From Blastocatellia bacterium (GTDB taxonomy: Bacteria > Acidobacteriota > Blastocatellia > UBA7656): a DNA stretch of 64,000 nt. The notes under the pieces were generated by a model. The model worked only from the letters and a program-made list of their open reading frames with translations, was not told where the DNA came from and searched no databases. The position numbers and the translations under genes are program-made. The DNA lies in assembly GCA_963726785.1 (NCBI GenBank), contig CAVSDJ010000003.1:345878-409877 (forward strand), in the 5' to 3' direction. Of the stretch, positions 55,870 through 60,173 are shown piece after piece. How positions within the stretch are numbered: the first letter of the stretch is position 1; the number at the start of each line of letters is the position of its first letter.

Positions 55870-56715
55870 ATGAAGATAAACAAGAACATTATTTCGGATT
55901 CAAAGCTTATCAACCTTATTTTTGCAGTCGTTTGTTTATTGATCTTAGTTTTCGGAATCTGGTCTCCTAAAGCATTTTCCAGCAGGAGCGTGTCTAATCA
56001 ACAAAAGCAGCCTCTCACTGATGGAGAGTATAAGACAATGATTGAGACACTAGACCCGAATAATGTCCCGATAAGAAATATGACACGAGCGGTCAGGATA
56101 ATCTCAATTGAAAAAATTGAGGGCGGGTCGTTGCGTCTAACACTTCAGAACGGTTATGACAAATGGATAAATGGAATTGAAATTTCGATGGTCAATGTAG
56201 GAATTCATGAAGAGCTTGGTTCCACCAGAGAACATAACATCCCCCCCGGTGGAACTTATGAGCTTGATTTGGGTATCCAGGAACACACTGATACAGATGG
56301 CATCGAGATTGCGGCAGTCATATTTGAAGATGGAACCGCAGACGGAAATCTTGAGTTTGTAAAACCTGTACAAGAGCAAAGATTGGGCGAGCGCGTGCAG
56401 TATAAACGCGCACTGGCTCTGATTCAAAAACACTTGGCCGAGCCGGATGCGGATACGGTAGAAGGGCTCAACAGATTAGAGTCTAAACTGCAATCACTAC
56501 CTGTTGATGAGGAATCTGGCAAAAGCAGTGATTATATGTATGGGTTAAAGCAGGCAAGAAATCTGCTGGTTGTGAGTATGCAGTTTATTCGAGAACAGAA
56601 GAATAGACCTGTTCGGAGTTTGCCGAATAATCAAAACGACCAGCCAGGTTTCTCTATTCGTACAGAGTTAAACAACCTATTCGATGACTTTAGAAAACTT
56701 GTTCCTGAATTCTGA
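55870..56715 (+). CDS. Cassette A gene 1: N-terminally membrane-anchored orphan protein
   Basis: ATG 55870 is preceded by AAGGAG (inside ORF 55828..56715). TM anchor [21 protein letters not shown]-rich codon usage and no family recognised. Confidence 0.65.
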
Positions 56716-57772
56716 ATATTCTATTAGCGACCTTTCTTTAAATGATTGCGTACCTAGAGCTGCAGAATATAAAGATGGTGAAGACTCTGGTCCTAGCTGC
56801 ACTAATATATGGAAAAGACTATATTGGGAGGTAACATTTCCTGATCTATGGTCTCAACGAACTGTTGCTACTGGGAACGGTGTTGGGAAATGTAATGTCA
56901 AAGATTATTGTTGCGAGCCACTTACATTTGACGCCATATGCTGGCCTTATTTTTTTACACCTGAAATTAGTCAGGGCCAATGGAAACAAGATGTCTATTC
57001 GGCGGTTATGAAGGTTCAAAATATAAACTGCGAAAGTCAATCTTGCCCAAATATCACTAAGGTTCTTGGTTGTGTTCCGCCACAGCAGTTACCTAAAAGA
57101 ACTTTCAGAGTACCAATAACAGGAGGATTACATAATTGTATCTTTATCGCTGAAGGTGGATGCGATTTTATATATTGTGGTACGGGGAAGCACCAAGACC
57201 CGGCGACTTGTCTATGCGTACTTGATAACCCACCCTCTCCAATTTTAATAGATATACTTGGCAACGGTTTCGACCTGACTAATGCTGACAACGGTGTCAA
57301 CTTCGACATCAACAGCGATGGAACCGCAGAACACCTTTCCTGGACTGCCGCCGGTTCTGACGACGCCTTTCTTGCTCTTGACCGTAACGGTAATGGCACG
57401 ATTAATACCGGAACTGAATTATTCGGTAATTACACGCCGCAGCCTCCTTCATCAAATCCCAACGGATTTTTGGCCCTCGCCGAGTATGACAAACCTGCAC
57501 ATGGCGGCAATAATGATGGAATAATTGATAACCGAGACGCTATCTTCTCGTCATTGCAGCTCTGGCAAGACACGAACCACAACGGCCTGTCTGAGCCGAG
57601 CGAATTACACGCTCTGCTGTCGCTTGGTTTGGCTAAGATGGACCTTGACTACAGAGAATCCCGGCGCACTGACCGATACGGAAATCAATTTAAGTACAGG
57701 GCGAAAGTAAGAGATGTGCATGGCGCTCAGCTTGGCCGGTGGGCGTGGGATGTATTCTTTGTCAACCAATAG
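56684..57772 (+). CDS. Cassette A gene 2: Cys-rich head plus conserved Ca-binding tail (paralog 2); no signal peptide seen
   Basis: 362-aa ORF overlapping gene 1 by 32 nt. 17 Cys in the head. The tail from ~57230 ([27 protein letters not shown]...[11 protein letters not shown]) is 97% identical to the cassette-B tail. Confidence 0.7.
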
Positions 57773-57791
57773 AACACTCAAGGCCAAGCAT

Positions 57792-57835
57792 TCACGCTTT
57801 AACTAGCGAAACCGATTGCGAGCCTTCAATGACGC
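57792..57835 (-). repeat. Duplicated fragment of the purM 3' end (stop plus last ~13 codons)
   Basis: tcacgctttaactagcgaaaccgattgcgagccttcaatgacgc versus 60193..60236, with 2 mismatches over 44 nt at a constant 2401-nt offset. Confidence 0.9.
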
Positions 57836-57842
57836 AGCTTAT

Positions 57843-57990
57843 ATTGTTGCGCGATACTTCAACCGATTAAATGCCGCAAGAATTTTCGTGACCTTTGAAA
57901 AGCAGAATGGCTTTTGAAAGCTTTAGCATATCGAAATGTAATCAACATACTAGTTCCTTGACTCACTTAGTAGCGGATGATATAAACGCG
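57843..57990 (+). repeat. Cassette upstream region U-B
   Basis: See 55652..55800. Confidence 0.9.
57958..57986 (+). promoter_or_regulatory. Promoter candidate for cassette B
   Basis: TTGACT (57958..57963), 17 nt, TATAAA (57981..57986). Confidence 0.5.
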
Positions 57991-58068
57991 GCAGTTGTTA
58001 TAACCAAATGACAGAAAATTCCTAAGCTTCTGCCGTGTAGGTTTGAATGGCTGATTGAAGAGGCTGAA

Positions 58069-58854
58069 ATGTCTAGATCATTTATTTTGGGCTTTCTCGT
58101 AGGTGTGGCTCTTTTAATCGTTGTTGGCGTTGGCGCATCCAAGTTGCAAAGTAAAGAGGCGCAACGCATAGACGCAGAGGAAAAAGCTTATCAGGCAGAA
58201 ATTGTAGATGCTAATCCTGTGCAACTTGGTATATTAACTCAGCAGCAGCGCATCCACAGCAAGCTTTACACCCAGTATTTGGAAAGACGCGGAGGAAAAA
58301 CCATTAGCGGGCTTGTCGCGCAAGCCACGGGCAAAAGCAGGATTGTAGAAACGGTGGCGTTTGTCGGACTGACGGAAGTACTTACAGAGGCAGAGACGCC
58401 AGAAAACTATTTTGGCAATCTCACGCGTGCATCGGATGCAGTTGTCCGTGGCAGGGTAACGAGTAAGGTTTCGCAGATTACTGAAGATGATGCTTTTATC
58501 TTTACCGACTACGATATAACAGTGACAGAGGTTTTGAAAAACAATGCGATCACTCCGATTGAAATGGGCTCAACCATTACTGTCACTCGTCCAGGGGGTA
58601 AAGTATTAGTTAATGGAATAATCGTAAAGGCAACAGATAAGTCTTCCGAGGCATTATCAAGTAATGGTAATGATGTCGTTTTATTCTTGCAATTTATACC
58701 GGAAACAGGAGCTTATCGAGCAACACAAGATACTGGGAGCTTTGAATTAGATGACTCAAGTTTACGACCACTAACTAAATCTCAATTCCCGCCTGGGGTT
58801 CTTCAAAATAAGGACTCTTTTATACAAACGATCCGAGCAGTATCAAATCAGTAA
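58069..58854 (+). CDS. Cassette B gene 1: N-terminally membrane-anchored orphan protein (unrelated to cassette A gene 1)
   Basis: 261 aa. TM anchor [19 protein letters not shown]. No family recognised. Confidence 0.65.
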
Positions 58855-58877
58855 TAATCTACAGTGAAGTGATTAAT

Positions 58878-60173
58878 ATGAAGTCTCGCCAAATTTTCAG
58901 TATTTATCAATTCTTGTCGGGTCTTATTTGCAGTTGGCTGATATTTTTCGGATATATTGATATAACAGCGCAGGCAAGTTGTCCCTCGACTTATCACCAA
59001 GGATGGGTAGCAAGTAGTGATATAGGCTATGTAACTACATTTACAGGTATAGAACTGAACAATATAGGCGCGGCTCTAAGTAGTTGGACATTTAATAATA
59101 CTACTCGATTAAATTGTTCAAACGTTAGCTTTTCTATTGTTACATCAGGGGCTCCGTTCACCATATCTAGTAACCCTGGTCAAGCCACAGGGCATTCCAA
59201 TTGGGCAGCAAGCACAAGTGTTGATTTACTTGATGGAAAAGCTTGGACGGCAACAACAATTTTTTGGTGGGGCGCGATAATTAGTGGAAGCACCCCTGCA
59301 GGGAATAGAAATATGTCGCCTGCTTATTATTCGTGTATAAAAAAAACAATGCTTCATGAAGCGGGTCACACTATGGGGCTTGATGACCTGAGTGGCTCCC
59401 AAACCGCGAGACAAACTGTTATGAATAACAGGTCAGGGACCAATGATAGTGGTAATAATATGCCTACTTCGGTACAGTTTTGCGACAACAGTTCAGTAAA
59501 TACCATTTTGCAATATACTAATAATTGCACCATTGGCGATGGCGGCGGCGGCGACGGCGGATGCGATTTTATATCTTGTTTTACGGGAAACCATCAGGAC
59601 CCGGTGACTTGTCAATGCGTGCCTGATAACCCACCTTCTCCAATATTGATAGATATTCTCGGCAACGGGTTTGACCTCACCAACGCCGACAACGGAGTCA
59701 ACTTCGACATCAACAGCGATGGAATCGCTGAACCTCTTTCCTGGACTGCTGCCGGTTCTGACGAAGCTTTTCTTGCTCTTGACCGTAACGGTAATGGCAC
59801 GATCAATGCCGGAACTGAGTTATTCGGTAATTACACGCCGCAGCCCCCTTCATCAAATCCCAACGGATTTTTGGCCCTCGCCGAGTATGACAAACCCGCA
59901 CATGGCGGCAATAATGATGGAATAATTGATAACCGAGACGCTATCTTCTCGTCATTGCGGCTCTGGCAAGACACGAACCACAACGGCCTGTCTGAGCCGA
60001 GCGAATTACACGCTCTGCTGTCGCTTGGTTTGGCTAAGATGGACCTTGACTACAGAGAATCCCGGCGCACTGACCGATACGGAAATCAATTTAAGTACAG
60101 GGCGAAAGTAAGAGATGTGCATGGCGCTCAGCTTGGCCGGTGGGCGTGGGATGTATTCTTTGTCAACCAATAG
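58878..60173 (+). CDS. Cassette B gene 2: secreted metzincin/snapalysin-like zinc-protease head plus conserved Ca-binding tail (paralog 3)
   Basis: ORF 58869..60173 (GTG), with ATG 58878. Signal peptide ...[21 protein letters not shown] (HExxHxxGxxD) at 59355..59387. Gly-rich linker [10 protein letters not shown]. Tail from ~59631. Confidence 0.75.

Follow-up and report, generated by a model that had tools for sequence, protein, structure and literature searches.

An uncharacterised Ser/Thr-Pro subtype of the FrpC self-processing module as the constant tail of Cys-rich proteins in Blastocatellia

Introduction

A 64,000-nucleotide stretch of the genome of a Blastocatellia bacterium (Acidobacteriota; GenBank assembly GCA_963726785.1, contig CAVSDJ010000003.1, positions 345,878 to 409,877; hereafter the window) encodes three proteins, A, B and C, that carry different Cys-rich N-terminal heads on one common C-terminal tail. 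The Ca2+-dependent self-processing module (SPM) of FrpC and ApxIVA has in this tail a complete homologue, which represents an uncharacterised subtype in which Ser or Thr precedes the invariant Pro. The SPM family itself is known; what differs is the Ser/Thr-Pro, terminal, Sec-type form of the module, its massive expansion in Acidobacteriota and its organization in partner-effector cassettes.

The tail is an FrpC-type module

Scans of proteins A, B and C, and of the two membrane-anchored proteins encoded directly upstream of B and C (U1 and U2, respectively; see below), against Pfam-A and NCBIfam gave nothing above threshold. When the tail was compared with PDB sequences by phmmer, it matched entries 6SJW and 6SJX (6SJW: E = 5.7e-23, query residues 1-158 aligned to chain residues 1-154), and its first Pro aligned with Pro415 of FrpC, i.e., the P1' residue of the scissile Asp414-Pro415 bond. 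An AlphaFold2 model of the linker and tail (pLDDT 79, pTM 0.76) displays the SPM fold, with two perpendicular β-sheets, paired N- and C-terminal strands and a helix-turn-helix, a fold that was described as novel in FrpC (Kuban et al., PMC7078468). At E ≤ 0.001, a Foldseek search of the PDB with the tail model retrieved solely 6SJX and 6SJW (TM-score 0.73-0.77, E approx. 1e-12). Moreover, homologues of the tail, including a Kingella protein and one annotated as 'iron-regulated protein frpC', are listed with the Pfam accession PF26745, and the family is therefore already in Pfam; the accession is newer than the Pfam copy scanned, a text search for it returned nothing, and the family name could not be read.

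The first-pass annotation of the window had left the tail unassigned, an impression superseded by these matches. Its comparison with VLDLDGDG...DVWF modules in large RTX proteins proved apt, as RTX relatives encoded on plasmids, with up to 40% identity, end in ...DVWF. It had also considered that the tail might belong to a known family in its typical architecture: the family is indeed known, but the architecture is atypical because Ser/Thr stands in place of Asp, the module is terminal, RTX repeats are lacking and the signals are mostly of the Sec type. In both FrpC and the tail proteins, the module lies C-terminal to variable, non-homologous heads. Since FrpA and FrpC of Neisseria already place non-homologous N-terminal parts on the same SPM (PMC3034196), the layout is not without precedent.

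Calcium sites and the [S/T]-P junction

Residues named by Kuban et al. for FrpC were mapped onto 248 tails. The FrpC SPM binds Ca2+ at four sites, formed by D419-G424 together with D456 (site 1), D462-E474 (site 2), D499-D511 (site 3) and D521-E532 (site 4), and D414, D478 and D579 make a transient fifth site at the scissile bond (Kuban et al., PMC7078468). Kept in 95-100% of the tails are P415 and D579 (each 100%), D419, W451, D456, D462, N466, E474, L475, G477, G491, D499, N501, D503, W519, D521, N523 and E532, and N464 is kept in 91% (226/248). Three of the four FrpC Ca2+ sites are thus conserved. In particular, the ligands of site 2 (D462, N464, N466, G467 and E474) are retained at 91-100%, site 3 (D499, N501 and D503) is retained despite an insertion of 5 amino acids relative to FrpC, and site 4 is present as D521, N523, N/D525, G526 and E532. 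In site 1, whose counterpart is the D-I-L-G-N-G stretch directly after the Pro, D419, G424 and D456 are present, D423 is Asn or Asp, and D421 of FrpC is replaced by Leu, Ala, Ser, Gln or Asn. The T-shaped Trp pair W451/W519 and the 'narrow port' formed by L475, G477 and G491 are kept at 91-100%, and D579 lies in the last strand, which reads WDVFF in the tail and GDLLL in FrpC. The two modules are alike in length as well.

Four loops of the tail had earlier been picked out as candidate Ca2+-binding loops. Three of them (DRNGNxTI..E, GGNxDGxIxxRD and DxNHNGxSEPSE) correspond to FrpC sites 2-4; the other, FD(L/I)xxDG, falls within the segment matching T430-G450, which is disordered and dispensable in FrpC (Kuban et al., PMC7078468).

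The scissile Asp-Pro dipeptide of FrpC is preserved in its second residue, the Pro being invariant, but not in its first. The residue preceding the Pro (position -1, equivalent to FrpC D414) is Ser in 199, Thr in 44, Cys in 3, Asp in 1 and Glu in 1 of the 248 tails; in the window, the junction is T-P in A and S-P in B and C. Among 84 genomic copies, the counts are Ser 66, Thr 18, Asp 1 and Cys 1, and a search with the module of plasmid Rms149, which draws in the wider family, gave Ser 50, Asp 30, Thr 12, Cys 3 and Ile 1. Gly, Ala and Asn never occur at this position across several hundred relatives (Ser approx. 80%, Thr approx. 18%). Position -2 is variable, with Pro, Gly, Asn, Ser, Asp, Tyr and Ala all common, so that -1 is the single conserved position bordering a hypervariable region; the last Cys of the head lies 3-8 residues ahead of the junction in approx. 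90% of 293 sequences. Judged from these alignments, the junction residue is strongly constrained, and only residues whose side chain offers a hydroxyl, thiol or carboxyl group are seen there.

Position -1 covaries with position 478, which is Asn in 93% of the 248 tails; in FrpC, the substitution D478N merely slows cleavage (PMC7078468). Both acidobacterial members with Asp or Glu at -1 have D478, and N478 is found in 230 of the 246 members with Ser, Thr or Cys. In the wider family, Asp at -1 is accompanied by D478 in 19 of 30 cases and Ser at -1 by N478 in 30 of 50. As D414, D478 and D579 together make the fifth Ca2+ site of FrpC, this coupling indicates that the [S/T]-P junction still lies in that pocket.

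The three window proteins

All three genes lie on the + strand, and their common tail, previously put at about 178 amino acids, comprises 177. Protein A (59..1042; 327 aa) consists of a Sec-type signal peptide, a head (150 aa with 18 Cys), a T-P junction at 506..511 and the SPM-like tail at 509..1039. Protein B (56684..57772; 362 aa) has no recognisable signal peptide; its head (185 aa with 14 Cys) includes a Cys linker at 57155..57238 and is followed by an S-P junction at 57236..57241 and the tail at 57239..57769. Protein C (58869..60173; 434 aa from a GTG start) carries a signal peptide and a metzincin-like head (257 aa with 10 Cys), with a Cys linker at 59556..59639, an S-P junction at 59637..59642 and the tail at 59640..60170; the start formerly given for C, 58878, is an in-frame ATG, but the reading frame begins at the GTG three codons earlier. 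The tails start with P-I-(V/L)-I-D-I-L-G-N-G and end with ...GRWAWDVFF. Their identity amounts to 172/177 residues (97.2%) between B and C and to 131/177 (74.0%) for both A-B and A-C, in line with the hand-aligned estimates of 97% and approx. 74%. A likeness of 74-97% over 177 residues is far above chance. A fourth copy of the tail was not detected by tblastn of the window.

The heads of A, B and C show no mutual match at the level of BLASTP, apart from the linker of B and C, which agrees with the first-pass description of differing Cys-rich heads and gives no sign of the homology among heads that would have spoken against it. The linker (GGCDFIxCxTGxHQDPxTCxCVxDNPPS; 26-30 aa, four Cys), recognised already at that stage, is the sole head segment of B and C that BLASTP finds similar. 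It also recurs as a mini-module ahead of the tail in at least eight further proteins with different heads (P0001, P0002, P0005, P0006, P0030, P0033, P0052 and P0121). A likely orthologue of protein A is encoded at a locus (L002) of a Blastocatellia metagenome-assembled genome (MAG); its head is 65% identical, and it has the same signal peptide.

The tails of B and C are related by a duplication. Their DNA identity rises along the tail, being 157/177 over the first third, 173/177 over the second and 177/177 over the last; the similarity begins no earlier than the linker, and identity runs approx. 70 nt beyond the stop codon. The flank downstream of C coincides with the 3' end of purM, a convergent gene (60193..61233), and a relic identical to that end (57792..57833, - strand; 14 codons, VIEGSQSVSLVKA*) lies downstream of B, its flank having been duplicated along with the tail. 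Because the duplicated flank includes the purM 3' end, the tail of B was evidently copied from the C locus, and recombination appears to move the tail between genes. The purM-like flank was considered as a gene in its own right and ruled out, being a 14-codon relic. The first 32 nt of the B gene (56684..56715) overlap the end of U1, and U1 is approx. 45 amino acids longer than its homologues. Taken together with the missing signal peptide, the overlap raises the possibility that B is a copy in decay; the intergenic region and the signal peptide of B may have been lost through a deletion. A frameshift fusion of U1 and B was ruled out, as no signal-like sequence lies upstream in any frame.

Size, distribution and architecture of the family

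Searched against 1.84 billion representative proteins, the tail matched 22,075 clusters at E ≤ 1e-3, of which 14,563 remained at a cut-off of 1e-10 and 3,589 at one of 1e-30, and more than 520 tail matches were confirmed in GTDB species genomes. The best 78 loci come nearly all from Blastocatellia, Pyrinomonadaceae or unclassified Acidobacteriota MAGs (a single record bears the label Clostridia), and at least five copies of the tail are found on one 7.9-Mb contig. Within Blastocatellia/Pyrinomonadaceae, the family has undergone a great expansion.

To describe architectures, the representative library and genomic loci were used, since the homologue listing covered proteins of up to approx. 300 amino acids. 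Nearly all of the best 150 library matches (219-1075 aa) have the tail at the extreme C-terminus, and it ends 0-7 residues ahead of the stop in 243 of 248 relatives. An N-terminal Sec-type signal was recognised by a crude filter in 56 of 77 relatives. The heads range from 50 to 770 amino acids, with a median of approx. 7% Cys; among 115 of them, Pfam recognised MopE-like Cys motifs in 7, Peptidase_M10 and reprolysin domains in approx. 7, and PA14, subtilase, fn3 and FG-GAP in one each. The architecture of the tail proteins is thus a signal peptide, a variable disulfide-rich extracellular domain, the [S/T]-P junction and a terminal SPM-like domain. In FrpC, the order is head, D-P, SPM, RTX repeats and type I secretion system (T1SS) signal, which places the module inside an RTX protein secreted by a T1SS; in the tail proteins, the module is terminal and export is presumably via Sec, and no RTX repeats (HemolysinCabind) were found in A, B and C by the Pfam scan. 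The host also differs from that of FrpC, being an acidobacterium with a massive expansion of the family. Polymorphic toxins have a constant N-terminus, a variable C-terminal toxin and an immunity gene downstream. The tail proteins reverse this layout: the N-terminus is variable and the C-terminus constant, as the first-pass annotation had remarked, and the partner gene lies upstream.

A tblastn search of plasmids with the tail returned 113 records of RTX 'calcium-binding proteins'. Among the seven plasmid records inspected, D-P junctions occur in Azotobacter and Ralstonia, a single K-P junction in Cereibacter, and S-P junctions in P. aeruginosa Rms149 (WP_011270159), Vibrio europaeus pVEu and S. 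meliloti pSymB, with ends reading ...DVWF or ...DAWF. Both the Asp-Pro and the Ser/Thr-Pro subtypes occur well beyond the Blastocatellia genome of the window. The proteobacterial RTX modules with S-P junctions are the closest non-acidobacterial relatives of the tail in the plasmid collection (up to 40% identity). They share with it the Ser-Pro junction, ELFGN or ELFGS at position 478 and a last strand of the form D-[VA]-W-F; unlike the tail, they keep the DLDGDG motif at site 1 and are internal, with kilobases of RTX/VCBS repeats after them, and two of them adjoin T1SS genes. In addition, small metagenomic proteins of other lineages (P0305, P0306, P0309, P0314, P0318, P0337 and P0363) have a terminal S-P or T-P module whose last strand, ...DVWL, ...DIWF or ...DVWF, lies a short way ahead of the stop (a few residues, and up to 51 in P0309), so that the terminal architecture is probably not confined to Blastocatellia.

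Heads and upstream membrane-anchored partners

Among the 68 tail genes with sufficient upstream sequence, 48 are preceded by a same-strand open reading frame (ORF) of 180-380 amino acids that has an N-terminal hydrophobic anchor and ends within 400 bp upstream. Clustering of the ORFs at 78 loci shows that the partner families track head type. U1 (55828..56715, + strand; 295 aa) has an N-terminal membrane anchor and lies directly upstream of B; its family (cluster 6, 11 members) precedes B-type heads of approx. 170-220 amino acids and is related by hhalign to two other clusters, 8 and 14 (96.8% and 91.6%). U2 (58069..58854, + strand; 261 aa), likewise membrane-anchored, lies directly upstream of C; its family (cluster 4, 18 members in 15 loci) precedes heads of approx. 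245-300 amino acids, and the members checked are metzincin-like. The arrangement parallels that of frpD and frpC: the gene of the lipoprotein FrpD, a membrane-associated partner, directly precedes frpC, and the affinity of FrpD for the head of FrpC is sub-nanomolar (PMC3034196).

Head C contains a zinc motif of the HExxHxxGxx[H/D] type (59355..59387, + strand). The single sequence stays below Pfam thresholds, and a profile built from 15 related heads, in which H163, H167 and M185 are invariant, gave 92 PDB matches at E ≤ 0.1 (best 4.6e-5). Metzincins account for the best 60 of these 92 and include acutolysin, serralysins, archaemetzincin, karilysin, snapalysin and matrix metalloproteinases (MMPs). 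Both hallmarks of metzincins, the zinc motif and a conserved Met-turn, are thus present in head C.

The sequence of U1 matches nothing in Pfam or the PDB, and the profiles of the U1 and U2 families likewise gave no match to PDB sequences or Pfam. U2 has 188 sequence homologues, which belong to no Pfam family; all of the named ones are from Blastocatellia. In its AlphaFold2 model (pLDDT 89.8), U2 comprises a long N-terminal helix and a β-barrel, and at the fold level the best PDB matches of this barrel are TIMP-1, -2 and -3, the NTR domain of PCOLCE and the NtA domain of agrin (probability 1.0, E 4e-4 to 1e-3). NTR modules are barrels of the OB type. The model suggests a pair of protease and cognate inhibitor in head C and U2, with U2 as a possible TIMP-like protein of bacteria that accompanies a metzincin. 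Such a pair would resemble the serralysin system AprA-AprI/Inh and the MMP-TIMP system, with a metzincin-like head and a predicted TIMP/NTR-like barrel encoded just upstream. In contrast to TIMPs, U2 is membrane-anchored and lacks their free N-terminal Cys, by which TIMPs chelate the zinc of the protease, and its role as an inhibitor is hypothetical.

Apart from these partners, the only genes that recur as neighbours of the tail genes encode response regulators and small AraC-like helix-turn-helix proteins (ORFs of at least 90 aa, 78 loci). AraC-type ORFs (approx. 110-170 aa, one of 300 aa) lie near tail cassettes, mostly upstream, in 11 loci (L018, L020, L037, L045, L047, L050, L054, L056, L058, L061 and L072), and response-regulator or sigma-54-type genes adjoin the cassettes in 16 loci; both are possibly dedicated regulators.

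Processing module or structural handle

The reading preferred here, in which we place about even confidence, is that the tail is a Ca2+-folding junction module on secreted effectors, probably still processing but with a chemistry different from that of FrpC. The tail proteins would be exported by Sec, and the tail would fold upon meeting Ca2+ in the periplasm or outside the cell. Its first strand (PILID) would then pair with the last (WDVFF), forcing the [S/T]-P junction into the conserved pocket, as in FrpC, and the junction would be processed with the side chain of Ser or Thr (rarely Cys or Asp) as the nucleophile, either through an N-to-O acyl shift at the X-Ser bond or through attack on the strained Ser-Pro amide. 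The disulfide-rich head would be released and possibly transferred to an acceptor. The heads would be exchangeable secreted effectors, head C being a metzincin-type protease, and each head type would be paired with a cognate membrane-anchored partner encoded just upstream, such as the TIMP/NTR-like protein beside the protease. A more specific proposal, which must be rated unlikely, is that the SPM fold has a second, undescribed autoprocessing chemistry, in which the strain of Ca2+-driven folding makes the side chain of Ser or Thr (rarely Cys) form an ester by an N-to-O shift or a β-lactone-type acyl intermediate, and this intermediate releases the disulfide-rich head or passes it on covalently to an acceptor, located in the envelope or on a target.

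Systems with strain-driven autoproteolysis, namely the SEA domain (cleaved at G/SVVV), Nup98, Ntn hydrolases and inteins/Hedgehog, offer a comparison of mechanism only. They resemble the proposed scheme in that folding strain is combined with a hydroxyl or thiol at the junction and in that the new N-terminal strand stays in the sheet. They have no sequence or fold relation to the tail, their nucleophile is at +1 of the scissile bond, and cleavage of the tail is hypothetical.

Several observations weigh against continued processing and against the effector-partner scheme attached to it. In FrpC, the nucleophile is the side chain of Asp414, which forms an anhydride, and D414A abolishes cleavage (PMC7846742); the known chemistry therefore cannot operate with Ser or Thr. 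The literature searched on SPM, clip-and-link and FrpC consists solely of work on Asp-Pro modules (those studied are FrpC, FrpA, ApxIVA and the Alysiella and Kingella homologues); it includes nothing on Ser/Thr-Pro modules or Acidobacteria and no report of cleavage of any [S/T]-P module. D421 is lost from Ca2+ site 1 in the 248 tails, and protein B, unlike its relatives (e.g., at locus L001), has no signal peptide in any upstream frame. As regards the partner, the match of U2 to TIMP/NTR domains is one of fold (TM-score 0.57-0.62 on the target, 11-15% identity), and U2 has a membrane helix at its N-terminus, where TIMPs have the inhibitory free N-terminal Cys. Finally, Ser and Thr hydroxyls can ligate Ca2+ or cap hydrogen bonds, and the conserved -1 residue and its coupling to N478 would fit a non-cleaving, closed junction equally well.

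The last point belongs to a credible alternative, which can be held only tentatively: the tail may be a non-cleaving SPM derivative that serves as a Ca2+-dependent C-terminal handle on secreted proteins. Its possible roles are translocation across the outer membrane (e.g., by a type II-like pathway), retention at the surface or in the matrix and docking to a shared receptor, and Ser/Thr would cap or ligate the former fifth Ca2+ site. The absence of the catalytic Asp, whose replacement in D414A stops FrpC cleavage (PMC7846742), speaks for such a handle, and the coupled Ser/Thr and N478 could form a stable uncharged closure. Thousands of heads (protease, PA14, fn3, subtilase, MopE-like) with Sec signals are joined to one conserved C-terminal domain, of which genomes hold several copies. 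The C-terminal domains of type IX secretion system substrates and dockerins are C-terminal sorting or docking domains of similar architecture. However, a purely structural junction should tolerate Gly, Ala or Asn at -1, which are never seen, an argument that is not decisive because a Ca2+ ligand would restrict the position similarly. The pocket by which FrpC strains its scissile bond is also retained in full by the tail, and no candidate for a receptor or a conserved secretion system emerged near the tail genes, either from clustering of the ORFs at the 78 loci or among the ten large window ORFs scanned. The sequence data are compatible with both Ca2+-triggered processing and a structural handle.

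Two further explanations concern the nature of the tail itself. A Ca2+-binding interaction module of the dockerin or EF-hand type, without kinship to RTX processing modules, as its DxNxNG loops and sub-threshold EF-hand matches (E 0.08-0.5) might suggest and as the first-pass comparison with dockerins implied, is very improbable: the EF-hand matches reach 10-13 bits against cut-offs of approx. 25, dockerin profiles are absent from the Pfam matches at E ≤ 1, the loops belong to the SPM fold, and the phmmer match to the PDB and the Foldseek result, with no significant match besides the FrpC SPM, contradict it. Least probable of all is that the tail acts in type I secretion, as an RTX-type C-terminal signal or block of repeats, for although relatives are embedded in T1SS substrates adjoining HlyD/HlyB genes on plasmids, A, B and C are free of RTX repeat matches, Sec signal peptides are found in A, C and most relatives, and no T1SS gene is present among the ten large window ORFs scanned.

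Other genes of the window

The window further encodes three paralogous MacB_PCD/FtsX permeases of approx. 800 amino acids (26700..29108, - strand; 33164..35629 and 38360..40798, + strand), which are usual in Acidobacteriota, a TonB-dependent receptor with a CarboxypepD_reg domain (4961..7378), a BlaR1-M56/TonB_C fusion (18502..20631) and an ATPase of the type II secretion system/type IV pilus kind (13930..15681).

Implications

Very few protein modules make a reactive group on command, and the SPM, one of these, is already in use as a purification tag and in the NeissLock ligation tool. In all published work, the Asp-Pro bond is taken to define the module. A very large natural family keeps the strained pocket and yet has Ser or Thr in place of Asp, together with D478N, and the same exchange of Asp for Ser/Thr is found in many proteobacterial RTX proteins. 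The family may represent a new Ca2+-triggered chemistry of cleavage or ligation, or it may show how a catalytic module has become a Ca2+-dependent structural handle. If the second chemistry were real, it would provide a genetically encoded donor of acyl groups that is triggered by Ca2+ and differs from the Asp anhydride of FrpC, and the tail would be a general maturation or attachment device for thousands of Blastocatellia effectors, each guarded by an upstream partner. The tail proteins are organised as partner-plus-effector cassettes, one type of which comprises a metzincin and a possible bacterial TIMP-like protein, and in Blastocatellia/Pyrinomonadaceae, abundant Acidobacteriota of soil, the family is the sign of a major class of secreted proteins that is still unstudied.

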